A stretch of DNA of 64,000 bases from Elusimicrobiota bacterium (GCA_019135865.1 JAGVVD010000037.1:12771-76770), one strand, 5' to 3'. Shown: positions 4,501 to 18,092, counted from the stretch's first letter. Made by a program: numbers and translations. The notes: generated from the letters alone by a model not told the origin.

Positions 4501-5039
4501 ATGAAATCAAGAAAAGTATGGGTTGCAATGTATATCCGGTCCTCTTCATCAGCATACTCCGGTCCGTCCAGAAGAAGCATCGTGAATGGCGGATCCACAT
4601 CCGGCGAAAGGTATTCTCCGCAAAATACCCCGTCCGGCTCAAGACACTCTCCGCGCATACTGCGGAATAAATTCTGCGTGCGATAAACCCATTTTCTAGC
4701 GGACGGCAGAAAATCAGGGGAAGTGTGCGTCAGGTCGATGGTTATCGTGGCACTGCCGCTGGAGAGATCATATCCCTCCCCTATCTCGAAATCGATACGA
4801 AAATACGTCGTGCATCCCGGGAAAACAGAGACCGGCCCCAAAAAGGACGTTTCCAGAATATCGAGCGACGCGACACTGACTACGGCTGAAATGGCCGCTC
4901 CGTCTACCGGAGCGGTGCTCGCGGGATTATTGAAAAGGGGCACCGAAATACTGCCCCGATCACCGATCGACATCGGTCCCGCGGCAAAGCCCGGAATGGA
5001 AGACAGCAATAATGCTGTTACTGCCAGGACCCGGCTCAT
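1503..5039 (-). CDS. Large secreted surface protein: N-terminal Ig-like region, 8 tandem IPT/TIG-like repeats, C-terminal T9SS/FlgD-Ig-like sorting domain
   Basis: Signal peptide MSRVLAVTALLLSSIPGFAAG (start moved from 5069 to ATG 5039). There are eight ~87-aa repeats of the pattern I(T/S)PSSGPIGLPFT(L/I)TGSGFGNY...LIGGTT(A/C)PLTLWTDTQIKGTVPG...HEV(L/V)VER. The C-terminus, VYVYPNPAKGG...VELKVYSVAGTLVHERTL...YAWEGHIASGVYYFTVEAE...KFAVVR, matches the T9SS C-terminal/FlgD Ig-like pattern. Confidence 0.85.
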   Translation of the reverse strand: MSRVLAVTALLLSSIPGFAAGPMSIGDRGSISVPLFNNPASTAPVDGAAISAVVSVASLDILETSFLGPVSVFPGCTTYFRIDFEIGEGYDLSSGSATITIDLTHTSPDFLPSARKWVYRTQNLFRSMRGECLEPDGVFCGEYLSPDVDPPFTMLLLDGPEYADEEDRIYIATHTFLDFISGDSYLVDSEISGSSVAAYQLNTPPLTFGDMTPAVAPFTLPEGIHLIYFASRDYAGNAEVIKSTTVTVDGTAPLVTLLIAGSTVPDGGEVYLVEGDSITLEGVDPVSNGVASGLLDIYYLTGAAWDECPEGEPTFTGPPGTCENPRYEGPFTLTPGTHTVYYLAHDMVMNASAVRTAHFTVGSSSGAAEASITPSSGPIGLPFTITGEGFGAYSAGTTVALIGGATAPLTLWTDTQIKGTVPGSLAAGEYPVLVMRGAGLLAETSSFTVVVPALAEISPSSGPIGLPFTLTGSGFGNYVANYTRALIGGTTCQLTLWTDTQIKGTIPGTITPGVHEVLVERALNGGLVRSATVMFDLRNMEADWIAPSSGPIGMPFTIAGSGFGNYVANYTTVLMGGATCPLTLWTDGQIKGTVPGGLATGQYPVLVERRTADGGVMHSPEMSFTVLAVDAASMTPVAGPIGLPFTIHGAGFGNYSAGWTRVLIGGTTAPLTLWSDTQIKGTVPGVLAAGPHEVIVERELNGGLIRSSALNFDVVAPAAQLITPSSGPIGLPFVLNGTGFGNYVANYTRVLIGGTTCPLTLWNDTQIKGTVPGTIAPGAYEVVVERQLNGGLVSSQPLPFTLTVPALAAITPSSGPIGLPFTLTGSGFGNYAANNAKVLIGGTTAPLTLWTDGQIKGTVPGTIEPGTHEVLVERAFNGGVAHSQALSFELADPVLETVSPSPAAVLAPFTLIGYNFGNYAAGKSETLIGGATAQLTLWTDTQIKGKLPALGEGDYPVLVRRSFNGGVSQSAASTMTIVEPSVSSMTPTAGTGGEAFNIYGAFFGPYDAAIARVLIGGLPAQLTLWNDGVIKGKIPDALEVGTHTVIAARGQYLSDPLELYVPEGGGYSPSSFMAPLSPSAAFRLGEVYVYPNPAKGGAVPVFHLEFGLADKVELKVYSVAGTLVHERTLTGPPQVTSPAYAYEYAWEGHIASGVYYFTVEAERAGSKLKSRGKFAVVR
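1854..3935 (-). repeat. Eight in-frame tandem coding repeats, period ~261-267 nt (IPT/TIG-like modules)
   Basis: The DNA motif ggcaggccgataggncc recurs near 2581, 2843, 3109, 3640 and 3895. Antisense ORFs in the track start with near-identical peptides (MPNPVPFSTNGRPIGPEDG, MPKPAPCIVNGRPIGPATG, MPNPEPAIVKGIPIGPDEG, MPKPDPVSVKGRPIGPDEG) at 2815, 3079, 3346 and 3610, a spacing of 264-267 nt. Confidence 0.9.
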
Positions 5040-5091
5040 TCCAATATCCAATCGCTGATTTATACACATAAATCCGAATTTAACCCATTTT

Positions 5092-6045: not shown

Positions 6046-8448
6046 TCAATCCCCAAGATGTATCACTCTCGCTTCATCGAAAATGTCCGCGATACCATTC
6101 CCGTTCAAGTCTTCAAGAACATCGTAAACTCCATTGTCGTTTGAGTCTTTCCTCCCTTTCGCCTTAATATCGAAATTGCTGGTAAAGACTCCCTCAATTA
6201 ACGCCCCGTTCCAATCTATTAATCCTGTCCCGTCACAGTTTCCGTACAGCATCTGCTCATATCGTTTTTTGCCGGAGACATATATCGTTCTTTCCAGTAT
6301 TTTAGGACATTCCGTGGCCAGCCACAGCTTTCTCATATTGGCGCCGTTTACCGGAGCCGCCTGTATGTCCACTGCCTCGCCGAACTGATGGACGCTGTTC
6401 CAGACGCCGCCTTCGCGTCTGTTGTGCCTGGCGCTGCGGTAGCCGCTTGTGACCCGCACCCCGAACTCACCCTGAAAGCCGGCCCTGAGCGAAAGCGCTT
6501 CCTGCGCACGTTCCCGCGGGTATATGTGCGCGGAACAGTCGCTGTATTTGACGAACTCCCCGTCGGTACCGGGGCTGAACAGGGGACGGGTATATCTGCT
6601 GAAGTAGCCGGGTGCTGTCAGGTCGTACTCCGGCGTGCTCAGGTCGAAATACTCTTGCCGGCATTTGTCAATCGTGTCCTGGCGGATAGAGCGCGGGTAA
6701 GCCTTTACCTTCCCTTTCGGGGTATCCACGCTCGCGTCGATCTTGTACTTCAGCGGGAACTGGCGGCCTGTGGGGGCCTCGGGGACGCGTGTTACATAAA
6801 AATACGTTGCCGGACCGGCGGCGGGATTATCCGGATCGCCGCTGTCCATGTCGTCGTCCTTCGAATCCTCCACCGTCCAGGCTATGCCGGCTGAAAGCGT
6901 GTTGTATTCCGGCGTGTCGGGCTTGAGGTCGGCCGCGAGGTCGACCTTGTTCTCGCCGAAAAGGGTGGTGAACGATACCCCGTCGTTGGGATAGCCGATA
7001 TTGCTAATACGCAGCATCGGCGTGACGTCGGGATTGCCGGCGACGGGCCCGACGTCTTCCGGTTCCGCCGCCATCGAGGGCGGCAACCCCGCCGAGACCG
7101 CGCATCCGGTGCTGGTCCTCTTCTGGCAGGAAGGACAGTACGCGGTATACATGTACGGACCGGTCTTATCCCCCGTCCATACGGAGACGAACGCTATGCC
7201 AAGGTCATTGGTCTGCACGGAACCGGGCATAGCCTGCTGCCCCGCCGCGCCGGGAGGCGCGCCCGCCGCGCTGAAGTTTATATCCAGTCCGGGCTCACCT
7301 TGATGCGTGAGTGTGTTAAATGCCCGCACGATAAAGGCGTTGTTGACCCGGCTGTTTATATCCGCGTATTTATCGCATTGGATAATGCTTAACTCCGTTA
7401 CCTCTTCATTCGTTTTTGCTGTCGCGGTAAAATTCACGGCGGACGCGGCCGTCACGCAGCCAGCGCAGGTCGCTTTCACCGCATACTGGCCTGAAACTGT
7501 CCCGAGCGTCAGGGTCGTCCGCGCTATGCCGTCGGCGTCAGTCGTGAACACCCCTCCGCTCAATGTCGCCCCGTTGACAGGATCCTGTATAGTAAAGGTC
7601 ACCGCTTCTCCAGCTACAGGCTGGCCGGTGTCATCCTGTGTAACCCTGACGGCGAACGGCGACGGAAGCGACTGGGCTGTAAACCAGGTCTGGCCGCCGC
7701 CTGATTCATATGTTAATACTTTGCCTTTGTAACGGACTTCGGCCAGCCCGACGGCGGCGTTGAAACTTATTGAAGGGCTAGGACTGCCCTGGGGGCGTAT
7801 CTGCGACTGCGCACTCATCGCCAGATAGCCGACGAGATAATAAGGCTCCCCTCCTATATCCACGGAAGAGCCGGAAGCCCGGCTCTCTACCGCAAGGATG
7901 GTATCTTTGCTCTCGCTGAAATTGGGGACGGAACTGTCGCTGGCGTATCCCAAGGATGTGACCGGGACCGTTGAAAGAGTACTGGTAAGCGAGGCGGAGA
8001 CGCTCACCGTAGCGATGGGGGCGTATTGCCCTGCGACAACACCCACCAATTTCATGTTCGTCCAACTTATATTCACTGTAGCCGGGACTTTGACTACAAC
8101 CGCTTCATTATTGGGGACTTTGGCGTAAATACGGGAGAGAGAATTAGCATTGGCGGACCCAAAGACGCTGTAGTCGTCAAGAAGTCGAGTCATATTTCCA
8201 TTAACGGATGATTTGGAGGCATTAGCACCGGCGATGTAATAACCGGTATTTAACCCCCGCGACACCGAACAGTCAGGGGTGTTGCAGGCACCGGAGCTGA
8301 CGGCATTGTAATAGACGCTGTACCAGTTCCGGACATAAACATCGGCTGATTCGGTCAGTACCGAGGTTGGGACCTGCGCGTGCACGGCGGGAGCCGGCAG
8401 CGCCGCAAGCGCCGCTAAGGTTATTGTCAATAGTCCTCTGGTAATCAT
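6046..8448 (-). CDS. Secreted multidomain protein: Big_1-like Ig domains plus a C-terminal peptidase M15A (YcbK/DUF882-type zinc peptidoglycan peptidase) domain and a Ca-binding-like tail
   Basis: Signal peptide MITRGLLTITLAALAALPAPAVHAQ. Invasin/Big_1-like segment VRVTQDDTGQPVAGEAVTFTIQDPVNGATLSGGVFTTDADGIARTTLTLGTVSGQYAVKATCAGC. M15A signature VTSGYRSARHNRREGGVWNSVHQFGEAVDI. Asp/Asn/Gly-rich tail DSNDNGVYDVLEDLNGNGIADIFDE. Confidence 0.75.
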   Translation of the reverse strand: MITRGLLTITLAALAALPAPAVHAQVPTSVLTESADVYVRNWYSVYYNAVSSGACNTPDCSVSRGLNTGYYIAGANASKSSVNGNMTRLLDDYSVFGSANANSLSRIYAKVPNNEAVVVKVPATVNISWTNMKLVGVVAGQYAPIATVSVSASLTSTLSTVPVTSLGYASDSSVPNFSESKDTILAVESRASGSSVDIGGEPYYLVGYLAMSAQSQIRPQGSPSPSISFNAAVGLAEVRYKGKVLTYESGGGQTWFTAQSLPSPFAVRVTQDDTGQPVAGEAVTFTIQDPVNGATLSGGVFTTDADGIARTTLTLGTVSGQYAVKATCAGCVTAASAVNFTATAKTNEEVTELSIIQCDKYADINSRVNNAFIVRAFNTLTHQGEPGLDINFSAAGAPPGAAGQQAMPGSVQTNDLGIAFVSVWTGDKTGPYMYTAYCPSCQKRTSTGCAVSAGLPPSMAAEPEDVGPVAGNPDVTPMLRISNIGYPNDGVSFTTLFGENKVDLAADLKPDTPEYNTLSAGIAWTVEDSKDDDMDSGDPDNPAAGPATYFYVTRVPEAPTGRQFPLKYKIDASVDTPKGKVKAYPRSIRQDTIDKCRQEYFDLSTPEYDLTAPGYFSRYTRPLFSPGTDGEFVKYSDCSAHIYPRERAQEALSLRAGFQGEFGVRVTSGYRSARHNRREGGVWNSVHQFGEAVDIQAAPVNGANMRKLWLATECPKILERTIYVSGKKRYEQMLYGNCDGTGLIDWNGALIEGVFTSNFDIKAKGRKDSNDNGVYDVLEDLNGNGIADIFDEARVIHLGD

Positions 8449-8816: not shown

Positions 8817-9812
8817 TTAGTACTGTCCTTTGGCGGCCTCGCCGCCGGAAACTATGGCTATGCTGGCGCTGGTGCCCAGGCGGGTCGCGCCGGCCTTCAC
8901 CATCGCCGCGGCGACCTCGGCGTTCTTGATGCCGCCGGAGGCCTTCACTCCCATCTCGGGCCCGACGGTCTGGCGCATCAGCGCGACATCCTCTACGGTG
9001 GCCCCGCCGGAGCCGAAACCGGTCGAGGTCTTGACGAAGTCGGCCTGGGCCTGCTTGGACATGCGGCAGGCGCGGACCTTCTCGTCGTTGGTGAGGTACG
9101 AGGTCTCGAGGATGACCTTGAGGCACTTGCCGCGCGTGGCCTCGCGCACGGCCCGGATGTCGTCGAGGACCAGCGCGTCGTTGCCGGACTTGAGCGCGCC
9201 GATGTTTATGACCATGTCGATCTCGTCGGCGCCGTTGGCGATGGCGTCGCGGGCCTCGATGGCCTTGACGGTCGGGGTGGTGGAACCCAGCGGGAAGCCG
9301 ATGACGGTGCAGACCATCACGCCGCTGCCGCGCAGCAGGCGGGAGGCCATGGCAACGTAGCCGGGATTCACGCAGACGCTGGCGAACTTGTGCTTGCGCG
9401 CTTCCTCGCAGAGCTTGCCTATCTCCTCCTGCGTGGCGTTGGCCTTGAGCAGGGTGTGGTCTATCATGCCGGCGATGGAGGAACTGCCCGCTCCGGGGTT
9501 GCAGAAGCTGACGCGCTCCACGCCCATGCCTTTGACCTGCTGGGCGGTGAAATTGTTCAGCGGGTTGCAGCTCTGGCAGGTGCCGGAACAGGTGTTCTCC
9601 TCGAGCCGGCAGTCCGGGTTGCGCTTAGGCGCCGGGGACTGGGGACCGGTCTGTCCGCCGACGAGCGGGTTAGAGAAGACCTTGCCGGCGCTGCCCATGG
9701 TGACGCGGCCTTCCGGGGGAAGGCTCTTCTGGCCCCGCGGGGCGGCGTCCTCTTTCGCCCGCATTATCCTGGCGACTTCCTCGGCTATCTTCCTTATGTC
9801 TTCTTCACGCAT
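8817..9812 (-). CDS. deoC: Deoxyribose-phosphate aldolase (DERA) with a ~110-aa N-terminal extension (encapsulation-peptide-like helix plus Cys-rich linker)
   Basis: Core [38 protein letters not shown]...[12 protein letters not shown]...[17 protein letters not shown]...LKVILET...[39 protein letters not shown]...GATRLGTSA is a short-type DERA, and both catalytic Lys contexts are present. The N-terminus is [19 protein letters not shown]. The start overlaps the upstream BMC-P gene by 8 nt. Confidence 0.93.
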
Positions 9813-10104
9813 ATTTCTTTACCCCTTTCTCGCAGCTGACCTGGTCCACTATGCCGCAGATGACGGTGCGGACCGGCGCTTTCGGGTTCCTGAGTATCTT
9901 CCTGGCGCCGCCGCCCTCGTCCATGACGAGCACGACGTCGCCCGGGCCGGCGCCGACGCCGCCGTCGAGCGCCAGGGTGGCGTCGCCGGTGAACTCGCCG
10001 GAACCGGACGGATCGACGGGCCTCACCAGCAGCAGCGCGGGGCCTTCCAGCCCCTTGTGCTTGCGGGTAGCCCATACATTTCCAACGACTTTTCCTACGA
10101 ACAT
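9805..10104 (-). CDS. BMC-P vertex protein (EutN/CcmL family), paralog 1
   Basis: [31 protein letters not shown]...[22 protein letters not shown]...[13 protein letters not shown] is a typical EutN/CcmL pentamer sequence. Confidence 0.9.
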
Positions 10105-10108
10105 AAAT

Positions 10109-10405
10109 TCAGATAAGTTTCTTGCCGTCTATGATGCCCACTATGGCCGCGTCCACGGGCGGCAGGTTAGACTTCGAGGAAGTCTCTCCCTCCCAGCCCT
10201 CGAAGGCCACTATGGCCTCGCGCGAGGCCACGAAGAAGACCGTCTCGCCGGCGCCGGCGCCGACGGTGTCGGCGGCCACCAGAGGGTCGCCGGAAGGGGC
10301 GTCGGTGACCCAGTCGAGCGGCTGCACCAGCAACAGCGTCTTCCGGTCCATGCCGCAGCACTGCTGCGAGCAGAACACCCTTCCGATGACCTTGGCCTGC
10401 TTCAT
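10109..10405 (-). CDS. BMC-P vertex protein (EutN/CcmL family), paralog 2
   Basis: MKQAKVIGRVFCSQQCCGMDRKTLLLVQPLD...AADTVGAGAGETVFFVASREA...VDAAIVGIIDG. It shows the EutN/CcmL pattern but is more divergent, with an inserted WEGETSSKSN segment. Confidence 0.85.
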   Translation of the reverse strand: MKQAKVIGRVFCSQQCCGMDRKTLLLVQPLDWVTDAPSGDPLVAADTVGAGAGETVFFVASREAIVAFEGWEGETSSKSNLPPVDAAIVGIIDGKKLI

Positions 10406-10412
10406 TCAAATC

Positions 10413-10859
10413 CTAGCAGCAGCGCTGCTCTATCGCCGTGATCTTGTCCAGCCGCTTCTGGTACTTCCCCCCCTCGAAAGGGGTGGAGAGCCAGACGCGC
10501 AGCATCTCCTGCAGCGCCAGCTCGCCGTGGGTCTTGCCGCCCAGGCAGAGCACGTTGCAGTCCTCGTGCGCCGCCGCGAAGCGCGCCGAGATGACGTCGT
10601 AGGCGGCCACGGCCCTGATGCCGTGTATCTTGTTGGCGGCCAGCGGCATGGCGCCGTTGAAGCCGTCTATGAGAACGCCCTTCTCGAACTCGTGCTTGCG
10701 CACGGCGTCGCCGACGAGCATCGCTATATCCGGGAAATCGACCGACTCCGTGGAATAGCAGCCGAAATCCGTCACCTCGTGGCCGAGGGTCTGGAGGTAT
10801 TTCTTGAGCTTCTCCTTGGCCTCGAAGCCCGCGTGGTCGGCGCCTATGACGATCTTCAT
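10413..10859 (-). CDS. RpiB/LacAB-family sugar-phosphate isomerase with non-canonical active-site residues
   Basis: MKIVIGADHAGFEAKEKL...VLIDGFNGAMPLAANKIHGIRAVAAYD...AHEDCNVLCLGGK...FEGGKYQKRLDKITAIEQ aligns along its length with RpiB as I recall it. Where E. coli RpiB has ICGTGVGISIAANK, this protein has IDGFNGAMPLAANK. Confidence 0.85.
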   Translation of the reverse strand: MKIVIGADHAGFEAKEKLKKYLQTLGHEVTDFGCYSTESVDFPDIAMLVGDAVRKHEFEKGVLIDGFNGAMPLAANKIHGIRAVAAYDVISARFAAAHEDCNVLCLGGKTHGELALQEMLRVWLSTPFEGGKYQKRLDKITAIEQRCC

Positions 10860-10867
10860 ATCAGCTC

Positions 10868-11416
10868 CTATATCGCGCCCGCGAGATGTTCGTGCGCGTT
10901 CGGGATGACTATGCGGCTCACCACCGCGTCCTCGCCTACCGCCTTCACGCCCGCGGCCACGGCCGTGCGCACCGCGCCGACCTCGCCGTTGACGGTGAAG
11001 TAGCCCTTGCCGCCTATGCCCTTGCCGGTATTGACCTCGGCGACGTGGACGAAGGCCGCCTTGGCGGCCGCGTCGGCGGCGAACAGGGCGGGCAGCGCCT
11101 CTTTGGTCTCCACCATGCCGACGGCTTCCAGCGCGGCGGGCTTGACTTTCTTGTTGAGGGCGGCCAGCGCGCCCGCGTGGACATTGCGGATGATGTGGCG
11201 CGCGATAAGCGTATTGCCCGCGATCTCGGCGCCCTTGGAGAGCGAGGATTCCACCTCTCCGACGGGGCCGGCGATGACGATTATGTATTTGCCCTTGGAG
11301 ATGGCCTGGTGGAGTTTAGGCTCCACGCCGGCCGCCTTGCACATCGCGTCCAGCGCTTCGATGCCCTTGGCTATCGAGGAAGTTTCCATCATGCCTATCG
11401 AAATATTGGCCTGCAT
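10868..11416 (-). CDS. BMC-T shell protein (tandem BMC domains, PduT-like architecture, lacks the PduT cluster cysteine)
   Basis: Two BMC domains: IGMMETSSIAKGIEALDAMCKAA...KYIIVIAGPVGEVESSL and LEAVGMVETKEALPALFAADAAAKAA...GKGYFTVNGEVGAVRTAVAAG. Start moved to ATG 11416 (AAGGAG 6 nt upstream); the ORF track begins at 11473. The PduT ICPGK position reads ISKGK. Confidence 0.88.
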   Translation of the reverse strand: MQANISIGMMETSSIAKGIEALDAMCKAAGVEPKLHQAISKGKYIIVIAGPVGEVESSLSKGAEIAGNTLIARHIIRNVHAGALAALNKKVKPAALEAVGMVETKEALPALFAADAAAKAAFVHVAEVNTGKGIGGKGYFTVNGEVGAVRTAVAAGVKAVGEDAVVSRIVIPNAHEHLAGAI

Positions 11417-11439
11417 CTGTTTCTCCTTAAGAGTACGCC

Positions 11440-12864
11440 TTAAGCTATCCTGAGGTCGCCGACCACGCTGCACTGCAGCGGGCGGACGAAATGGCTGGTC
11501 TTGGTGATGCCGTCGCCGGTCGGGGTGCCGATGGACATCGAGGCGTAGCCCTCGCCCAGGCCCAGGCCGTGCAGCGTGCAGCCGTTCTTGACGAAGATGG
11601 AGCAGGCCATGCGCCGGCCCATCTTGGTCATGTTCTTCACATTGGTCGAGTACATCCCCGCGCTGTGATGGTTGTTGCCCTCGGCGCGGCGGGCCAGCTG
11701 TACCGCGGCGTCTATGTCGCGGGCCGCGGTCACAGGCAGCACCGGCATCAGCTGCTCGGCGTGGACCAGCGGGTGGTCGTTGGGCACCTCGGCCCAGAGC
11801 ACGCGTATATCGTCGGAGAGGTTCAGGCCGATGGACTTGGCTATAACGGAAGGATTCCTGCCGATGAAATCGCGGTTGATCCTGGGTTCGGGGCCGGGCT
11901 CCAGGATGATCAGCCGGGAAAGCTGGTCCATCTGCGCGCCGGTCAACTCATGGGCGCGGTGGTCCTTGCGCATCGCTTCCAGGAAGCGGGCCCGGGCGGC
12001 CTCCGTGACTATGACTTCCTTCTCGGCTATGCAGAGGACGTTATTGTCGAAACCGCAGCCGGTTATTATCTGCTCCGCGCAGTCCGGGAAGACAGCCGTC
12101 TCGTCGACGACGACCGGCGGGTTGCCGGGGCCGGCGGCTATGGTCTTGCAGGCCTTGCCGGCCGTCATGGCGACCTTCACTATCGCGGGGCCGCCGGTCA
12201 CCAGGTTCATATGCGTGTCCGGGTGGGAAAGCAGCTGCTTGGTGGCCTCCTGCGTCGGCTTGGCTATGGTCGAGACGAGGTTATGGGGCCCGCCGGCGGC
12301 GACTACGGCGGAGTCGAGCGTGCGCACCGCGTCGGCCACGCAGCCCTTGGCGGCCGGGTGCGGCGAGAAGACGGCGGCGTTGCCGGCAGAGAGTATACCG
12401 ATGGCGTTGCTGATGATGGTGGCGACGGGATTGGTGGAGGGCGTTATGGCGGCGACCACGCCGAAAGGCGCGTACTCGACGAGGGCCAGGCCCTTGTCGC
12501 CGGTATAGGCGACGGCGCGCAGGTCCTCGACGCCGGGCGTCTTGTCGGCGCAGACCAGGTTCTTGAGGACTTTGTCGGAGACGCGGCCCATGCCGGTCTC
12601 GGCCACGGCCATCTCCGCCCAGCGGCGGGCGTTGGCGCGGGAGACCTCGCGTATGGCGGAGATCATCTTCTCGCGGGCTTCGAGGCCCATGTCCTGGAAG
12701 CCGGGCTGGGCGCGGTTGGCGGCGGCCACGGCCTGGTCGACGGTATCGAAGACCGGCCCGCCGGAGACGGAGGCGGAAGAAGCGGACGGCGCCGGGCCGG
12801 CGGCTTCGAGGTTCTTCACCACCTCCGCGACTATCTTCCTGAGTTCTTCCTCGTTTATGGACAT
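11440..12864 (-). CDS. CoA-acylating aldehyde dehydrogenase (PduP/EutE-like) with an N-terminal encapsulation-peptide-like helix
   Basis: 474 aa. ALDH fold with the catalytic-Cys context GFDNNVLCIAEKE and a PduP/EutE-like length and organisation. The N-terminus MSINEEELRKIVAEVVKNLEAAG is followed by a Pro/Ser/Ala linker. Confidence 0.9.
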   Translation of the reverse strand: MSINEEELRKIVAEVVKNLEAAGPAPSASSASVSGGPVFDTVDQAVAAANRAQPGFQDMGLEAREKMISAIREVSRANARRWAEMAVAETGMGRVSDKVLKNLVCADKTPGVEDLRAVAYTGDKGLALVEYAPFGVVAAITPSTNPVATIISNAIGILSAGNAAVFSPHPAAKGCVADAVRTLDSAVVAAGGPHNLVSTIAKPTQEATKQLLSHPDTHMNLVTGGPAIVKVAMTAGKACKTIAAGPGNPPVVVDETAVFPDCAEQIITGCGFDNNVLCIAEKEVIVTEAARARFLEAMRKDHRAHELTGAQMDQLSRLIILEPGPEPRINRDFIGRNPSVIAKSIGLNLSDDIRVLWAEVPNDHPLVHAEQLMPVLPVTAARDIDAAVQLARRAEGNNHHSAGMYSTNVKNMTKMGRRMACSIFVKNGCTLHGLGLGEGYASMSIGTPTGDGITKTSHFVRPLQCSVVGDLRIA

Positions 12865-12874
12865 AACGGCTCCG

Positions 12875-13180
12875 TCACTGCATCTTGTTCACGGACTTCT
12901 TGAAGACTATCTTCCCTTCTTTCTCTATGGTGTCGACGATGGCGAAGATGGTGCAGTCGACCGGGGTGCTCTCGGTCTTGGAGGTCTGGCGGGCCGAGGA
13001 GCCCTGCACGAGCAGGACCAGTTCGCCCATGCCCGCGCCGACCGAGTCGACGCCGACGAGCGGGTTGCCCTTGGGCTTGTCGTCCAGGCCCACGGGCTGG
13101 ACCATCAGGAGCTTGGTGCCGACGAGTTTGTCGTCCTTGCGGGTGCAGACTACGTTGCCCACTACTCTGGCGAATAACAT
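12875..13180 (-). CDS. BMC-P vertex protein (EutN/CcmL family), paralog 3
   Basis: MLFARVVGNVVCTRKDDKLVGTKLLMVQPVG...GVDSVGAGMGELVLLVQGSSAR...VDCTIFAIVDTIE. Start moved to ATG 13180 (GGAGGA upstream); the ORF-track start at 13270 would read through a repeat element. Confidence 0.88.
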   Translation of the reverse strand: MLFARVVGNVVCTRKDDKLVGTKLLMVQPVGLDDKPKGNPLVGVDSVGAGMGELVLLVQGSSARQTSKTESTPVDCTIFAIVDTIEKEGKIVFKKSVNKMQ

Positions 13181-13214
13181 ATATCGGTCCTCCGTGAGGG
13201 GCTTCCGGCCGTCG

Positions 13215-13362
13215 AGAACTATGCGGGGTCCTGTCGGCGATCCGCCCGTAAAAAACGCGGTCTCGCACACCGTGCTCGCCGCTCCCTCTCTCGCCGCTCG
13301 CGCTTACGCAAGCTCGCGGCTCCGGAAGGTTTTTCCGGGCGGATCCGCCGCCACCCCCGCTA
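13215..13362 (+). repeat. Intergenic structured repeat, A-type unit (copy 1)
   Basis: gagaactatgcggggtcctgtcggcgatccgcccgtaaaaaacgcggtctcgcacaccgtgctcgcc...cgctcgcgcttacgcaagctcgcggctccggaaggtttttccgggcggatccgccgccaccccc. By eye it is ~85% identical to 27048-27190. The 5-prime arm (13236-13254) can pair with the 3-prime arm (13330-13349). It lies between BMC-H (13406) and BMC-P (13180). Confidence 0.85.
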
Positions 13363-13405
13363 TCCCCTTATCCGGCCGGAAGCGGGGGCGGCGCAGGGAT
13401 CCGTT

Positions 13406-13690
13406 TTATTTCTTCCTGATGTCGGCTATCGGGAGCTTGCCTTCGAGGTCGCCGTGCGGCTGCGGTATGACGTGCACGCTGACCAGTTCGCCGACCTTCT
13501 GGGCGGCGGCGGCGCCGGAGTCGCAGGCGGCGCGGCAGGCGGCGACTTCGCCCCTGAAAAGTATGGTGACCAGGCCGGAGCCGATCTTCTCGTAGGCGAC
13601 CAGCTTGACGTTGGCGGCCTTGACGGCGGCGTCGGCCGCTTCCACGCAGGCGACGAGGCCCTTGGTCTCTATCATTCCGAGTGCTTCCAT
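13406..13690 (-). CDS. BMC-H shell protein (single BMC domain hexamer), second copy
   Basis: [79 protein letters not shown] is a canonical BMC domain. AGGAGGA lies upstream of the ATG. Confidence 0.93.
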
Positions 13691-13744
13691 TGTGTCCTCC
13701 TGTGAACGGGTACCGCGAAATCGGGATACCGCTTATTGAATCAT

Positions 13745-13781
13745 TATATATTTTTATGCCACCCGCAAGGGTCCATGGGCT
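13745..13781 (-). promoter_or_regulatory. Candidate internal promoter (AT-rich box with TATAAT) upstream of the second BMC-H gene
   Basis: The minus strand reads cccTTGCGGgtggcataaaaataTATAATgattcaataagc. TATAAT corresponds to plus 13753-13758, ~63 nt upstream of ATG 13690. The spacing to TTGCGG is only 14 nt, so the -35 assignment is weak. Confidence 0.35.
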
Positions 13782-13840
13782 CCGTATCGCATGGGCCCGG
13801 GAGGCGGGCCCCGGGAACGGGCGCTCTTTACGGGGAAGGT

Positions 13841-14443
13841 TCAGGGCCCGGGAGGAGGCGGCCTTTTGATCGCGCCCGTCTTGGCGGCTTTCCCCGCCGG
13901 CAGGGCCTTGACTTCCACCCCCACCCCGAAAGCCCTGGCGCAGGACTCCGGCCCGGAGTCGCCGCGCCGCAGGATATCCCGGAGAACGAGCGTGCGCGCG
14001 TCCAGCCAGCCATGCAGGACTTCGCCCTTGCTGTCGCCATAGCCGGAAGTTATCCGGCTCAGGTAGCAAAAAAGAGTGTCCGCGTTCGTGGAGACCGAGA
14101 CCATGTAGAGCGAATGACCCGAGGCGCATTGAGCCGGGATGCTCCTGGTGCAGGAGGTGGCCCCCCACGGCTTGACCAGCTCGTAGACGAAACGGCTGCT
14201 GTCGGGAGACCAGGCCAGCGCCGCGAACCTCATTCCCCCGAACCCCGGCGTCAGCGGCCTGGCGGAATCCCGGCCGACGAGGTGCATCGCCCCGGCGCCC
14301 GGCCAGGCCGCCCAGTTGCCGTCGGGCGACACATAGCAGGCCTCCGCGCCGGGAGGGCAGGAGACCGGCTCCGGAACGCCGGCGGCGGATGAAAGAACGG
14401 AGCAGGCCAGGATGCAGGCGGATATTCGGAAAAGGCTGCGCAT
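13841..14443 (-). CDS. Hypothetical secreted protein or lipoprotein embedded in the BMC locus
   Basis: MRSLFRISACILACSVLSSAAG is a signal or lipobox-like N-terminus (start moved to ATG 14443). Composition is normal, with short PD40/WD40-like motifs (SPDGNWAA, WSPDSSRFVY), unlike the Arg/Gly/Pro-rich junk in the overlapping alternative frames. No family recognised. Confidence 0.55.
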   Translation of the reverse strand: MRSLFRISACILACSVLSSAAGVPEPVSCPPGAEACYVSPDGNWAAWPGAGAMHLVGRDSARPLTPGFGGMRFAALAWSPDSSRFVYELVKPWGATSCTRSIPAQCASGHSLYMVSVSTNADTLFCYLSRITSGYGDSKGEVLHGWLDARTLVLRDILRRGDSGPESCARAFGVGVEVKALPAGKAAKTGAIKRPPPPGP

Positions 14444-14483
14444 CGGTTCCCTCCCGGGCGCTGTCATGAGGCGGTCCGCCGCC

Positions 14484-15122
14484 TCAGACGATATAGGCCG
14501 GGTCGTTGTTGCGCAACCCGGCGGCGTTGGCTTCCTCGGTGTCGAGGTGGAGTTCCAGCGCGTACTTGTCGGAAACCCGGCAGAGCACGGCCTCGTAGAC
14601 GGCGGCGCGGTCGCCGCGGCCGCAGCGGATGCGCACTTCCATGCCGTCCTTTATCTTCATCTTTTCCGCGTCCTTGGGGTGGAAATGTATGTGGCGCTTG
14701 GAAAGTATCACGCCGCGGTCGATGGTCACGGAGCCTTTGGGGCCGATGAGCTTCACGCCGGGCGAATTGTCGAGCTTGCCGGAATCCCGTATGGGAGGAT
14801 CGATGCCCAGGGTCCTGGCGTCGGCCAGCGAGACCTCGATCTGGGTGTAGGGCCGGTAGGGGCCGATGAGGCGGACGTTCTTGAGCGAGCCCTTGGGACC
14901 TTCGACGGTGATGAGCTCGTTGCAGGCGTAAAAGCCGGGCTGGCGGAGCTGGCGGAACTGGCAGGGTTCGGCGTCGGCGCCGAACAGGGCCTTGAAATGC
15001 TCTTTGGTGATGTGGAAGTGGCGGTTGGAGATGCCGACGGGCACGGGCATGGAGCTGCGCTCCTGCCTGAGTTTCAGGTCCTCGATTATTTCCTTCACCA
15101 GTTTCTCGTCCATAATATACAC
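14484..15122 (-). CDS. pduL: Phosphate acyltransferase PduL (phosphotransacylase of BMC metabolosomes) with an N-terminal encapsulation-peptide-like helix
   Basis: Two PduL repeats with His motifs (VGISNRHFHITKEHFKALFG and VILSKRHIHFHPKDAEKM), ...GPKGSLKNVRLIGP...QIEVSLADARTLGI..., and LELHLDTEEANAAGL. N-terminus MYIMDEKLVKEIIEDLKL. Confidence 0.92.
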   Translation of the reverse strand: MYIMDEKLVKEIIEDLKLRQERSSMPVPVGISNRHFHITKEHFKALFGADAEPCQFRQLRQPGFYACNELITVEGPKGSLKNVRLIGPYRPYTQIEVSLADARTLGIDPPIRDSGKLDNSPGVKLIGPKGSVTIDRGVILSKRHIHFHPKDAEKMKIKDGMEVRIRCGRGDRAAVYEAVLCRVSDKYALELHLDTEEANAAGLRNNDPAYIV

Positions 15123-15145
15123 CTTCTGTTGCCCCCCTTAAGGGA

Positions 15146-15299
15146 ACAGCCGGGGGAGGCGGGGCGGCAGCTTAGCAAAACCTTCACGGAGGCCGGAGCA
15201 TCGTAAGCGCGGAGGCCGAGTGAGGAGGGCCGAGCGCTATGCGCGAGAGCCCGTGTTTTGCGGGCTGCCGCCCCGACATGCCCCCGGCATAGTTATTCC
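15146..15299 (-). repeat. Intergenic structured repeat, B-type unit (copy 2), in inverse orientation relative to A-type
   Basis: 154 nt that differ from 27225-27378 at only 3 positions by my count. An internal long-range stem is possible (ggcggcagc at ~15163-15171 with gctgccgcc at ~15265-15273). The reverse complement is ~65% similar to the A-type units. Confidence 0.9.
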
Positions 15300-15300
15300 G

Positions 15301-15388
15301 ATCGCCGGACCGAGGTCGGAGCGCGAGCACGGTGTGCGAGCGGCGTTTTTTCGTGGTGAGCCCCCGCCGGCCCCCGGCATAGTTCTCC
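15301..15388 (-). repeat. Intergenic repeat, truncated A-type half unit in inverse orientation (copy 3)
   Basis: The reverse complement, ggagaactatgccgggggccggcgggggctcaccacgaaaaaacgccgctcgcacaccgtgctcgcgctccgacctcgg, matches the 5-prime half of the A-type unit at 13215. It ends 5 nt from the tpiA stop codon. Confidence 0.75.
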
Positions 15389-15393
15389 TTACC

Positions 15394-16170
15394 CTACTTC
15401 GCCAGCACGGGCTGGAAATGTATCACGCGCAGGAACTTGTCGGCCTTGAGGCTCTCGCCCCCGACCAGCGCGCCGTCTATATCGGGCTGCGCCATCAGCT
15501 CGTCCACGTTATCGGCCTTCACCGAGCCGCCGTAGAGTATCCGCACGGCCGCGGCGAAGTCCCTGCCGTAAAGCCTTTCCATCTGCTTGCGCACGAAGGT
15601 GTGGGCGTCCTGCGCCTGCTCGGGGGTGGCGGTCTTGCCGGTGCCTATCGCCCAGACGGGCTCGTAGGCGATGACGACCTTGGCGGCGTCGGCCGCGGGG
15701 ATGCCGGCGTAGGCGCCGGTCAGCTGGGTCTCGAGCACGCGGTAGGTCCGCTGGGACTCGCGCTCCTCCAGCGTCTCGCCGATGCAGAGCACCGGCAGCA
15801 GGCGCGCCTTGAGGGCGGCCTTGACCTTCTTGTTTATCACCTCGTCGGTCTCGAGGAAGATCTTGCGGCGCTCGCTGTGGCCGACGATGGCGTGCGAGCA
15901 GCCGGCGTCGAGCAGCTGCGACGGGGCGACCGCGCCGGTGAAAGCGCCTTTCTCCTCCCAGCAGACGTCCTGCGACGAGAGGAATATCCTGGAGCCGCCC
16001 AGGGCGGCCTTTACGGCGTGCAGGCCGGTGAACGACGGGGCCAGCAGCACGTCGTGCTTCAGGTCCGGGTCCAGGCCCTTGTTTATGGCGGCGGCCAGAT
16101 CGGCGGCCTCCTTCGCGGTCATGTGCATCTTCCAGTTGCCGGCGATAAGGGGTCTGCGGTTCGGGTTCAT
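15394..16170 (-). CDS. tpiA: Triosephosphate isomerase
   Basis: PLIAGNWKMH, VGHSERR and IAYEPVWAIGTGKTATPEQA are the canonical TIM catalytic motifs. 258 aa, with GAGGAG upstream of the ATG. Confidence 0.95.
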   Translation of the reverse strand: MNPNRRPLIAGNWKMHMTAKEAADLAAAINKGLDPDLKHDVLLAPSFTGLHAVKAALGGSRIFLSSQDVCWEEKGAFTGAVAPSQLLDAGCSHAIVGHSERRKIFLETDEVINKKVKAALKARLLPVLCIGETLEERESQRTYRVLETQLTGAYAGIPAADAAKVVIAYEPVWAIGTGKTATPEQAQDAHTFVRKQMERLYGRDFAAAVRILYGGSVKADNVDELMAQPDIDGALVGGESLKADKFLRVIHFQPVLAK

Positions 16171-16186
16171 TTCGGGTCTCCTCGTT

Positions 16187-16744
16187 TCAGATCAACTCGT
16201 TCAAAAGTTCTTTGCGCGGCTGCGGTATGACGACCTTCTCGACCAGCAGCCCGCGGCGCGCCACCACGGCGGCGCCCGCCTCCACGGCCGTCCCGGCCGC
16301 GGCCACGCTGCCGGTCAGCGTCACGAACGCCTTGCCGCCCAGCGCCATCGCCAGGCGTATCTCGATGAGCCGCACGTCGGCGGCCTTGACCGCGGCGTCG
16401 GCCGCTTCTATCAGCGCCGAGACCGAGAAAGCCTCTATAACGCCCAGGGATTCCAGCTCGCCGGCCGGGCCTGTACCCTCGATGGCCGGGAAGACCTGCG
16501 GGTGTATGTTCGGGATGACGAACTGGTCCACCAGCGCGTGCGCCGCCTTCGAGGCGCCCGCTTCGACGGCGGCGTTGACCGCGCCCACCTCGCCCGAGAC
16601 CAGTATCACGTACTTGCCGGGACAGATGGAGCGCGAGACCAGGATCCGCACGTCGGAAGTCTTGAGCATCGCGTCGGCCGTCTCGAGCCCCTTCGCTATG
16701 CTCGAAAGTTCCACTCCGCCTATGGCGTTAAGGTTGTTGGCCAT
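16187..16744 (-). CDS. BMC-T shell protein, PduT-like (tandem BMC domains, retains the [4Fe-4S]-ligand cysteine context)
   Basis: IGGVELSSIAKGLETADAMLKTSDVRILVSRSICPGKYVILVSGEVGAV... closely parallels Salmonella PduT as I recall it ([46 protein letters not shown]). Cys41 codon at 16622-16624. The second domain is [25 protein letters not shown]...GGKAFVTLTGSVAAAGTAVEAG. 185 aa, against ~184 aa for PduT. Confidence 0.88.
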   Translation of the reverse strand: MANNLNAIGGVELSSIAKGLETADAMLKTSDVRILVSRSICPGKYVILVSGEVGAVNAAVEAGASKAAHALVDQFVIPNIHPQVFPAIEGTGPAGELESLGVIEAFSVSALIEAADAAVKAADVRLIEIRLAMALGGKAFVTLTGSVAAAGTAVEAGAAVVARRGLLVEKVVIPQPRKELLNELI

Positions 16745-16745
16745 G

Positions 16746-18092
16746 TCAGTCCGCCTTGATCTCCACGTAAATATGGTTCACCTTCGTCACCACGCCGTCC
16801 ACGCTGGCGTGCACGGGGCAGCCCAGCTTGTCGGCCGGCAGGTCGCCCACGACCTCCCCCCGCCGTACGCGCTGTCCCTCTTTCACGGAAGGGGAGCAGG
16901 GCGCGCCTATATGCTGCGACATCTGTATGCGCACCGAACCGGGCCGGTACTTGAGGTCCTGATAGGGGGCGTCCGTGAGATGATCCTCGAGGCCCAGCCT
17001 TTTTACCAGCCGCGAGACCGGGACCTTGCGGAAATCGCGCAGCGGATGGGCCTGGTTGGACGAGCGGCCGGCCAGCGAAGAGTTCTTGAGCCCGGTCTTC
17101 AGCTCCCGCAGGTCGCCCTTGGCGGCGACGCAGGCCTCGCGCGGATGCAGGTTCTCGGGGCAGGAGTAGAGGCTGCAGAGAGAACATTCGCAGCAGGCCA
17201 GGGCGTATTCGCTGTGCAGTTTCTTATCGGGACCGCCGGAAAAAAGCAGGCTGCGCATGACGCGGTGAGGCTGCACCTGGTGGCCCAGCAGGTAGCGCGG
17301 GCAGAACTCGGTGCAGAAAGAGCACTGGTCGCAGGCCGACTTGCCGATGCGCGAGAACACCGGCCGCGGCTGGGCCTTCTTCTGTATCAGGGGATGGTCC
17401 TTGGGCAGCACTATGAGCCCGCCGGAGGCCCTGTTCACTATGGTCGAGAAATCGGGGATGACCTTGCCCATCATGGGGCCGCCGTCTATGCCGGCGGGGT
17501 CCTTGACCGTCGCGCCGCCGCACAGTTCCACGGCCTCGGCGTAGGTCACGCCTATCGGCACCTTGAAAGTGGACGGCTGCTTCACCGCTCCGGCCACCGT
17601 TATCCATTTCTCGGTCACGGGCGTCTCTTCCGCGCGGGCGGCGTTGTAAAGGGTCTCGACATTGCTGACCACGCAGCCCACGTCGAGCGGTATGCCGCCG
17701 GCGGGAACGATCCTGCCGGTCAGTTCGGCGACCAGGCACTGCTCGTCGCCCGCGGGATAATAATCGCCCATGGGCCCGACGGAGATATTGCGGCGGCTCC
17801 GTGCTATCTCCTCCAGCCGCTTCACCAGCTTTTCGTGCTTGCGCTTGATGCCGAAAATGCCGGCGGAGGCGCCGACTGCCCGCATCATCAGCTCCAGGCC
17901 GTCGAAAACTTTTTCCGCGTGCAGCTCCAGCAGCTTCTGGTCCTTTTTCAGCAGCGGCTCGCATTCGGCCGCGTTGACCAGCACGAACTCCGCTTTCCCC
18001 CCCGCCTTGACATAGGCGGGAAAGCCGGCGCCGCCGGCCCCTACCACTCCGGCGGCGCGCAGCTTGGCGGCGAATTCCTGCTGGAAGGACAT
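16746..18092 (-). CDS. PduS/RnfC-like NADH-binding flavo-iron-sulfur oxidoreductase
   Basis: AAGVVGAGGAGFPAYVK...VLVNAAECEPLL is the Complex1_51K/RnfC-type nucleotide-binding region. There are two ferredoxin-type Cys clusters (CDQCSFCTEFCP and CCECSLCSLYSCP). The C-terminal segment QHIGAPCSPSVKEGQRVRRGEVVG...PVHASVDGVV resembles the RnfC barrel-sandwich domain. It starts 1 nt after the PduT-like gene ends. Confidence 0.85.
   Translation of the reverse strand: MSFQQEFAAKLRAAGVVGAGGAGFPAYVKAGGKAEFVLVNAAECEPLLKKDQKLLELHAEKVFDGLELMMRAVGASAGIFGIKRKHEKLVKRLEEIARSRRNISVGPMGDYYPAGDEQCLVAELTGRIVPAGGIPLDVGCVVSNVETLYNAARAEETPVTEKWITVAGAVKQPSTFKVPIGVTYAEAVELCGGATVKDPAGIDGGPMMGKVIPDFSTIVNRASGGLIVLPKDHPLIQKKAQPRPVFSRIGKSACDQCSFCTEFCPRYLLGHQVQPHRVMRSLLFSGGPDKKLHSEYALACCECSLCSLYSCPENLHPREACVAAKGDLRELKTGLKNSSLAGRSSNQAHPLRDFRKVPVSRLVKRLGLEDHLTDAPYQDLKYRPGSVRIQMSQHIGAPCSPSVKEGQRVRRGEVVGDLPADKLGCPVHASVDGVVTKVNHIYVEIKAD

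Follow-up and report, generated by a model that had tools for sequence, protein, structure and literature searches.

The stretch of DNA analyzed here, 64,000 nucleotides (nt) from an Elusimicrobiota bacterium (GCA_019135865.1, JAGVVD010000037.1:12771-76770; hereafter the window), holds a bacterial microcompartment (BMC) locus in which the gene for the aldolase DERA (8817..9812, minus strand, 331 aa plus stop, by open reading frame (ORF) translation and Pfam) encodes a long N-terminal extension with a conserved cysteine module. DERA is the signature enzyme of the sugar-phosphate-utilizing (SPU) type of microcompartment (Axen 2014; Sutter 2021), which is found in 26 phyla and is among the most widespread bacterial microcompartments (PMC8217296). 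The SPU-cargo DERA at 8817-9812 is the single DeoC-family gene recovered by a genome search (n = 1), and the same strand carries three EutN genes, one BMC-H, two BMC-T, and genes for RpiB, AldDh, PduL, TIM and PduS. DERA, an RpiB-type isomerase, an acylating AldDh, and shell genes including a BMC-P triplet are the constituents by which SPU cargo is recognized. Judged by gene composition, this Elusimicrobia locus fits an SPU1-like type, since PduL, TIM and PduS are present and BMC-T(dp) is absent, matching the published description (PMC11585597).

The catalytic part of the protein is a TIM barrel spanning residues 116-331 (8817..9467, minus strand), as delimited by Pfam, alignment with solved structures and AlphaFold2 (AF2). 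The Pfam DeoC match (PF01791; 72.5 bits against a cut-off of 23.8) covers residues 116-308 only; 27 solved DERAs match the barrel, the best being 5dbu (E 9e-82), and the earliest query residue that they align is 102. The catalytic motifs are intact, with D199 and K232 invariant and K261 nearly so in 149 aligned sequences, residues that were matched to the E. coli numbering (D102, K167 and K201; PMC11585597) through motifs rather than by direct alignment. IDMVIN, KVI and VKTSTGF are identical between the query and 5dbu in their alignment, and AF2 models most of the barrel with a predicted local distance difference test score (pLDDT) above 93. The protein ends at residue 331 (8820-8822, minus strand) with G-x-Y, as in the family consensus; the C-terminal Tyr of E. 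coli DERA participates in catalysis, and given the terminal G-x-Y the tail looks functional here as well. The IDHTLLK motif starts at residue 117, and short DERAs, among representatives taken at 50% identity, open 6-12 residues before that motif; the extension ahead of the barrel comprises 115 residues.

An earlier, sequence-only reading of this DNA had argued for the long form of DERA, in part from an 8-nt overlap of its ATG with the upstream BMC-P gene, and both the overlap and the long form stand. The BMC-P (EutN) gene occupies 9805..10104 on the minus strand, its TGA overlaps the DERA ATG (9812) by 8 nt, and this ATG is the first start after the in-frame stop. In all six related loci (L002-L007), the Met that opens the conserved helix of the extension lies directly behind BMC-P, 4-11 codons past the in-frame stop, with overlaps or gaps of -33 to +8 nt between the two genes. 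The 8-nt ATGCGTGA overlap is identical in two of these loci, and purine-rich stretches of the GGAG or GAAAGG type lie upstream of the DERA start in four (L002, L003, L005 and L006). Because the G+C content of the window is 65%, open frames alone are weak evidence and the comparative evidence is decisive. When homologs were sought with scoring restricted to residues 1-120, 62 DERAs (310-359 aa) and one truncated deposit (P0063) were recovered. Orthologs devoid of the cysteines or of the extension were named in the earlier reading as the observation that would overturn it, and all 62 keep both the helix and the cysteine core. An untranslated extension, with the start at Met116 (or Met96) and the upstream frame an accident of a 65% G+C genome, could draw on automated annotations, which often start such DERAs downstream (PMC11585597), and on the deposited truncated form (236 aa), but protein-level conservation spans the whole extension in the 62 orthologs and in several phyla, the start arrangement behind BMC-P is conserved, and no Shine-Dalgarno-like sequence was seen, by eye, just before Met116. 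A downstream start is very unlikely because the extension, its cysteines and the start arrangement are all conserved, and the comparative evidence refutes it.

The extension has the three parts originally described for it, namely a helix, a linker and a cysteine cluster. The helix (residues 3-22; 9747..9806, minus strand), delimited by AF2, conservation and hydrophobic moment, is modeled with a pLDDT of ~90 from a 149-sequence alignment; its positions I6, I9, A10, V13 and I16 are invariant in the aligned orthologs, and with a hydrophobic moment of 1.71 it exceeds the mean of shuffled sequences, 0.78 (p ~0.02). The helix pattern (acidic residues, I/L, R/K, K, I, then E-V) recurs at the N-terminus of AldDh and more loosely at that of PduL, a likeness that the sequence-only reading had already pointed out. 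A terminal amphipathic helix followed by a poorly conserved linker before the domain is the hallmark of an encapsulation peptide, and residues 3-22 are predicted to be one, which would target DERA to the compartment core or shell. Such a role is known biology: the N-terminal extension has been published as an encapsulation peptide for all SPU DERAs, and deleting that peptide made SPU6 DERA soluble (PMC11585597). When residues 1-115 were compared with a protein atlas, scores were 0.67 or lower, and the nearest named clusters were N-terminal pieces of EutC, PduD/E and EutQ, which is consistent with an encapsulation peptide and is a lead only.

Between the helix and the cysteines lies a Pro/Gly/Ser linker (residues 23-65; 9618..9746, minus strand), predicted to be disordered from AF2 and conservation, with a pLDDT below 50 over residues 24-65 and with length and sequence varying freely among orthologs. 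The alignment reveals one conserved island in it, V-T-x-G-[ST]-A-G-K-[VI]-F at residues 37-46 (9675..9704, minus strand), which is modeled with low confidence and in which G40, G43, K44 and F46 are invariant. Present in the Elusimicrobia-type DERAs and in their sister group, this island could be a short docking motif.

The cysteine module in Elusimicrobia and other DERAs

Five cysteines lie in the extension, at residues 68, 75, 79, 82 and 104, and at the nucleotide positions originally assigned to them. The cluster C68-x6-C75-x3-C79-x2-C82 (9567..9611, minus strand) was delimited by alignment, and C104 was placed at 9501-9503 by codon arithmetic from the ATG at 9812; the latter belongs to a post-cysteine segment, residues 83-106 (N-P-L ... 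R100-V-S-F-C104-N-P; 9495..9566, minus strand), delimited by alignment, AF2 and hhalign. The 62 orthologs, for which the named matches are Elusimicrobia metagenome-assembled genomes (MAGs), are 49-96% identical over the extension, mostly 50-62%, and every one keeps N-T-C-x3-C-x2-C with a further Cys 21-22 residues later. Around these cysteines runs an invariant block, E71-x-N-T-C75-x3-C79-Q-x-C82-N-P-L ... R100-V-x-F-C104-N-P, whose intervening residues are free in sequence and length. Position 68 behaves differently: a Cys stands at -7 in 50 of the 62, at -8 in five and nowhere in seven, and C68 is missing or shifted in 6 of 22 aligned orthologs. Conservation across these alignments, which is far beyond chance, marks C75, C79, C82 and C104 as the invariant cysteines and C68 as dispensable. 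Of the C-x6-C-x3-C-x2-C motif put forward in the sequence-only reading, the last three positions hold, but its first Cys is the least conserved and the fifth Cys, C104, is a core cysteine, such that the pattern conserved among the orthologs is C-x3-C-x2-C-x21-C.

A sister group (P0064, P0066, P0115 and L007) keeps C79, C82 and C104. At position 75 its members have His (L007) or Gly, and a new Cys appears at 110 together with a C-H-P motif after C104; P0066 has just three cysteines, whereas loci L004-L006 carry both C75 and C110. The core ligands would accordingly be C79, C82 and C104 plus a migrating fourth, putative ligand. A fourth Cys or His that migrates in this way is common among metal sites, and disulfides would hardly account for it.

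The segment that follows the cysteines is modeled by AF2 with a pLDDT of 69-76 and with short helices at 84-87 and 90-95. In a profile search of the PDB, this segment, whose consensus in the family is v..iv.aGA.RVg (Q91-C104 in the query), hit the C-terminal part of solved DERAs. When the segment of 60 diverse BMC-type DERAs was aligned with their own barrels by hhalign, it matched alpha7-beta8 (A..Mi.AGATRIGAS) with E 1.8e-6 and a score of 33.8; none of 150 column shuffles scored above 17.0, and the reversed profile scored 13.8. The alpha7-beta8 counterpart in the query is residues 301-316 (8865-8912, minus strand). When only the Elusimicrobia clade is used, this register still ranks first but does not reach significance (E 0.15-0.2). 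The segment may thus be a relic of a partial duplication, or a mimic, of the last helix-strand unit of the barrel; it lies just before beta1 in sequence, and beta8 adjoins beta1 in space.

The cysteine module is, as far as comparison of sequences can tell, a recurrent feature of the family and not peculiar to this window. We compared 139 DERAs, one per cluster at 50% identity, of which 89 have at least 60 residues before IDHT and 50 are short. At least four cysteines in the last 75 residues of the extension were found in 45 of the 89 extended DERAs and three in a further nine, while three or more are seen in none of the 50 short DERAs. At the same place, four cysteines occur in BMC-type DERAs from at least six other phyla; the last lies 31-37 residues before IDHT in the compact motif classes, and the spacings are specific to lineages. 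As read from 80 genomic loci, the spacing is C-x3-C-x2-C...C in Elusimicrobia, C-x4-9-C-x2-C-G-x-C in Myxococcota and in flavoprotein fusions (Bacillota and MAGs labeled "Rickettsiales"), C-x3-C-x4-C-x3-C in SPU6-like Anaerolineae, C-x-C-x6-C-C in Vicinamibacterales, and C-C-x4-C-x4-C in Bacteroidota and Ignavibacteria; representative clusters of several other lineages have C-x2-C-x5-C-x3-C. The CxxxCxxC spacing, to which the sequence-only reading had attached general weight, is peculiar to the Elusimicrobia clade, other clades having CxxCxxC, Cx2Cx5Cx3C, Cx3Cx4Cx3C or CxCx6CC.

The C-x2-C-G-x-C class, with its conserved Gly, is the largest; its three clustered cysteines are invariant and its upstream Cys is at least 90% conserved at pairwise identities of 27-41%. 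A profile comparison (E 3e-5) pairs C79 and C82 with the second and third Cys of this class, which marks the Elusimicrobia and C-x2-C-G-x-C modules as homologous at the level of sequence; by position, C68 corresponds to the upstream Cys of the class. A tree of the barrels recovers the Elusimicrobia type as one clade (support 86) on an unresolved backbone, with 92 of 224 branches open.

Many relatives of 420-516 aa (P0065, P0068, P0072 and P0074) have the architecture PF02441 flavoprotein-like domain, Cys4 module, DERA. Their interpretation as RpiB-DERA fusions proved wrong for most, as Pfam gives the flavoprotein-like domain and only P0169 is RpiB, Cys module, DERA; some flavoprotein fusions are without cysteines (P0085), and P0080 is of similar length with no PF02441 match. 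Cys4 DERAs adjoin shell genes or come from genomes that hold shell genes elsewhere; of the genomes of the latter kind that were tested, five of five encode shell proteins, against only 2 of 14 control genomes. Cys4 DERAs with helix-like N-termini were also observed more than 10 kb from shell genes, in Myxococcota (L008, L009, L011, L022 and L034) and in Vicinamibacterales/Acidobacteriota (L013, L014, L017 and others), the Acidobacteriota copies lying beside RpiB. These distant DERAs look like satellite cargo genes.

Candidate metals and possible roles

The four-cysteine module is probably a metal site of some kind. It has the properties of a generic Cys4 site, with four conserved positions, Cys/His exchange and ligand migration among relatives, and a metal site is the best reading because the substitutions are ligand-like, the module is broadly distributed across DERAs, and the clade-specific spacings occur at one site. 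As to the metal, we tentatively favor a fully Cys-ligated [4Fe-4S] cluster, which is preferred slightly over Zn, and the explanation as a whole is best given, equally tentatively, in its Fe-S version. A cubane is classically ligated by a CxxCGxC or Cx3Cx2C triplet together with a distal Cys, and the fusion of a PF02441 flavoprotein-like domain directly before the module hints at a redox function. In Pfam, Fer4 matched 3 of 10 variant segments (E 0.005-0.04), all below the cut-off, and did not match the query segment itself. In the PDB profile search, ferredoxin-type chains were the commonest non-DERA matches, all of them non-significant and mixed with zinc-binding chains; the other matches (netrin, laminin, eS26 and C2H2 fingers, with E at least 0.14 for C2H2/eS26) are noise. 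The [4Fe-4S] assignment that the sequence-only reading had derived from spacing is therefore not established, since the Fer4 matches stay below threshold and mononuclear Fe(II) docked with a higher score than the cluster.

Several observations weigh against the Fe-S reading. Docking scores were 0.44 for Fe(II), 0.31 for Mn and 0.23 for 4Fe-4S, from a tool that gives no ligand verdict, and the complex predictor placed all three at the cluster, with 4Fe-4S at residues 64-82 and using C68, not C104. No metal-binding Pfam family reached threshold on the isolated modules, and AF2, with the 149-sequence alignment, gave the residues over the cluster a pLDDT of 45-52. The cysteines are lacking in 35 of the 89 extended DERAs, and the module is hence not essential for encapsulation. 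In several clades the four cysteines fall within 11-14 residues (CxCx6CC and CCx4Cx4C), a compact packing more reminiscent of a mononuclear site, for Zn or another metal, than of a cubane. Vicinamibacterales and Myxococcota, both presumably aerobic, have the module as well, and it is present in the SPU6-like loci of Anaerolineae with no PduS within 10 kb.

The strongest alternative, possible yet less probable than a cluster, is a structural Zn(Cys)4 or Cys3His knuckle that would act as a rigid adaptor between peptide and barrel or as a docking knob, with no redox role. It would suit the published AF2 model of SPU6 DERA, which has hairpin-like "two beta strands" at this place (PMC11585597). It is further favored by the retention of exactly four cysteines at widely differing and often very compact spacings, by the change of Cys to His at position 75 in L007 and the C-H-P after C104 in the sister group, by the presumably aerobic carriers, and by the higher scores of mononuclear metals in docking, subject to the same caveat that the tool gives no ligand verdict. 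However, CxxCxxC and Cx3Cx2C triplets rarely supply three ligands to a single Zn, no zinc-finger family was detected (the best Pfam profile, zf-NPL4, reached E 0.14, which is not significant), and the frequent flavoprotein-like fusion hints at redox.

Metal-free disulfides, or a thiol switch by which the redox state of the lumen would decide whether cargo is cross-linked or released, as proposed for carboxysomal CcmM, are improbable. Cysteine numbers are even in most clades, CC and CxC arrangements exist, and the protein bearing the module is cargo that has to aggregate, but a His in place of a conserved Cys (L007) is unfit for a disulfide, P0066 has only three cysteines, and the largest class is the ferredoxin-like CxxCGxC with its conserved Gly. 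Elusimicrobia are, moreover, generally held to be anaerobes with a reducing cytoplasm. Finally, a radical-SAM-like catalytic cluster on the DERA barrel, suggested by Cx3Cx2C in 62 of 62 clade members, by the TIM barrel fold and by a Radical_SAM Pfam match of P0065 (E 0.0038, with no stretch passing alone), is ruled out, as the sequence-only reading had also held: PF04055 does not match the query, other DERA clades space their cysteines differently, the presence of a conserved fourth Cys argues against an open Fe site, the motif precedes beta1 by 35 residues instead of following it, and the catalytic Asp and Lys of DERA are intact.

Under the favored metal-site reading, the helix would bring DERA to the compartment and the linker would give it reach. 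The metal would be bound through C75, C79, C82 and C104, with C68 as a spare or alternative ligand, and would fold the cysteine module and the helix-strand segment into a small cap directly before beta1. Judging from where beta1 begins, such a cap would sit on the non-catalytic, N-terminal face of the barrel, where it might offer a stable or switchable surface for protein-protein contact during assembly of the core; were the metal an Fe-S cluster, the contact could respond to oxygen or redox state. The module is expected to be structural or regulatory because aldol chemistry at a Schiff-base lysine needs no metal, and it is unlikely to take part in catalysis, since DERA has intact Schiff-base machinery that suffices by itself. 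The redox-sensor, shell-docking and electron-relay roles suggested in the sequence-only reading are hypothetical. A complex prediction for DERA with RpiB scored 0.00, which counts neither for nor against docking.

A more specific version of the Fe-S reading, which we regard as unlikely, is that a redox-active [4Fe-4S] cluster tunes cargo assembly or activity to oxygen or redox, as in FNR, or links DERA to the electron path of flavoprotein and MNdh, while the adjoining relic copy of alpha7-beta8 mediates cluster-dependent contacts between DERA subunits. If true, DERA would be the first aldolase under Fe-S control, and microcompartment cores would assemble by a new principle. Strict coupling of the module to an electron path from PduS/MNdh to BMC-T was rejected, given the Anaerolineae loci with the Cys4 module and no PduS within 10 kb.

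Relation to known systems

The closest published system is the SPU6 DERA of Chloroflexi bacterium GWB2_54_36 (PMC11585597). As here, its extension is absent from non-BMC DERAs and consists of an amphipathic helix followed by a poorly modeled segment, its locus combines DERA with an RpiB-like protein (Cys to Asp) and AldDh, and start sites are often mis-annotated. Unlike the 115-aa extension here, that of SPU6 DERA measures ~70 aa, with its second part given as low-confidence "two beta strands"; the Cx3Cx2C...C spacing and an SPU1-like locus with PduL, TIM and PduS set the present protein apart. The "Flav+DERA" proteins of Hodarchaeales (PMC12747264), together with P0065, P0068 and P0072, share the four-Cys position and G-A-x-R-[IV] directly before the barrel, but these fusions have a ~200-aa PF02441 domain ahead of the module, where the protein studied here has just a helix and a linker.

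Cys-ligated clusters on microcompartment parts, a putative property in the case of DERA, are otherwise known from PduS/MNdh and from BMC-T(SE)/PduT with its CP(G/S)K pore cluster (PMC11626177), both of which are encoded in this locus (16187-18092). In contrast to the DERA module, these two form a characterized path for electrons from NADH to the outside; they are unrelated to it in sequence, and the module also occurs in loci without PduS.

The arrangement of cysteines recalls FNR-type sensors and single-cluster ferredoxins, in which an N-terminal Cys triplet (Cx3Cx2C or CxxCxxC) and a distal Cys hold one cubane on an appendage to an unrelated fold; in FNR, loss of the cluster alters the oligomeric state. 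CxxCxxC spacing also occurs among the DERAs of other clades. The likeness is one of arrangement, as no sequence homology was detected between the DERA module and these proteins and Fer4 stays below threshold, and we know of no DNA-binding or sensing output for DERA.

The extension and its targeting role are already published, and the cysteine module is the new part. Cysteines, metals (zinc included) or Fe-S are not mentioned for DERA in PMC11585597, where "cysteine" refers to RpiB and to a mass-spectrometry setting and two uses of "metal" are unrelated; the DERA cysteines are not discussed in the PMC12747264 preprint, and the module is absent from the literature found on DERA, microcompartments and cysteines or iron-sulfur. 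Characterization of the SPU signature enzyme was carried out solely on protein from which the N-terminal extension had been removed (PMC11585597). A four-Cys site in the deleted part would mean an unrecognized cofactor or structural metal in the native enzyme, could explain why full-length DERA made aerobically in E. coli is insoluble, and would help to reconstitute the compartment correctly. If the metal is indeed an Fe-S cluster, a pathway thought to be redox-neutral at the DERA step would have a redox or oxygen input.

The surrounding locus

The rest of the SPU1-like locus spans 10109..18092 on the minus strand, as annotated by Pfam and gene comparison, and is syntenic, at ~80% nucleotide identity, with loci of Elusimicrobia bacterium GWC2_64_44 (L002) and another MAG. 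Behind the BMC-P gene that overlaps DERA lie, all on the minus strand, a second BMC-P (10109-10405), the RpiB-like gene (10413-10859, 148 aa), a BMC-T (10868-11473), the acylating AldDh (11440-12864), a third BMC-P (within 12875-13270), a BMC-H (13406-13690), PduL (14484-15122), TIM (15394-16170), a BMC-T with a CPGK pore motif (16187-16744) and a PduS/MNdh-like flavoprotein (16746-18092). In the RpiB-like protein, Asp replaces the catalytic Cys (L-I-D-G-F-N-G), a replacement reported for all SPU RPIs. It differs from the published SPU6 RPI in having no N-terminal extension, the Pfam match covering residues 3-140 of 148. The BMC-T at 16187-16744, beside the PduS-like gene, has the pore motif S-I-C-P-G-K and matches the published MNdh/BMC-T(SE) electron-export pair (PMC11626177). 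The locus contains no alcohol dehydrogenase.

The gap between BMC-H and PduL measures ~790 nt (~13700-14480) here and only ~170 nt in the syntenic L002 and L003. Its sole sizeable ORF (13841-14467, minus strand, 208 aa) has a start resembling a signal peptide and a sub-threshold PD40 match, and no homolog of it was found in the 80 related loci; the BMC operon may contain an insertion here, or a gene restricted to this lineage. Another ORF, at 13368-14168, was rejected as a gene, being an out-of-frame echo of BMC-H. Directly downstream of the BMC locus, the minus strand encodes a protein of 1188 aa with eight IPT/TIG repeats (1503-5069) and one of 800 aa with Big_1/invasin-like and Peptidase_M15 domains (6046-8448), both of which are probably cell-surface proteins unrelated to the compartment.

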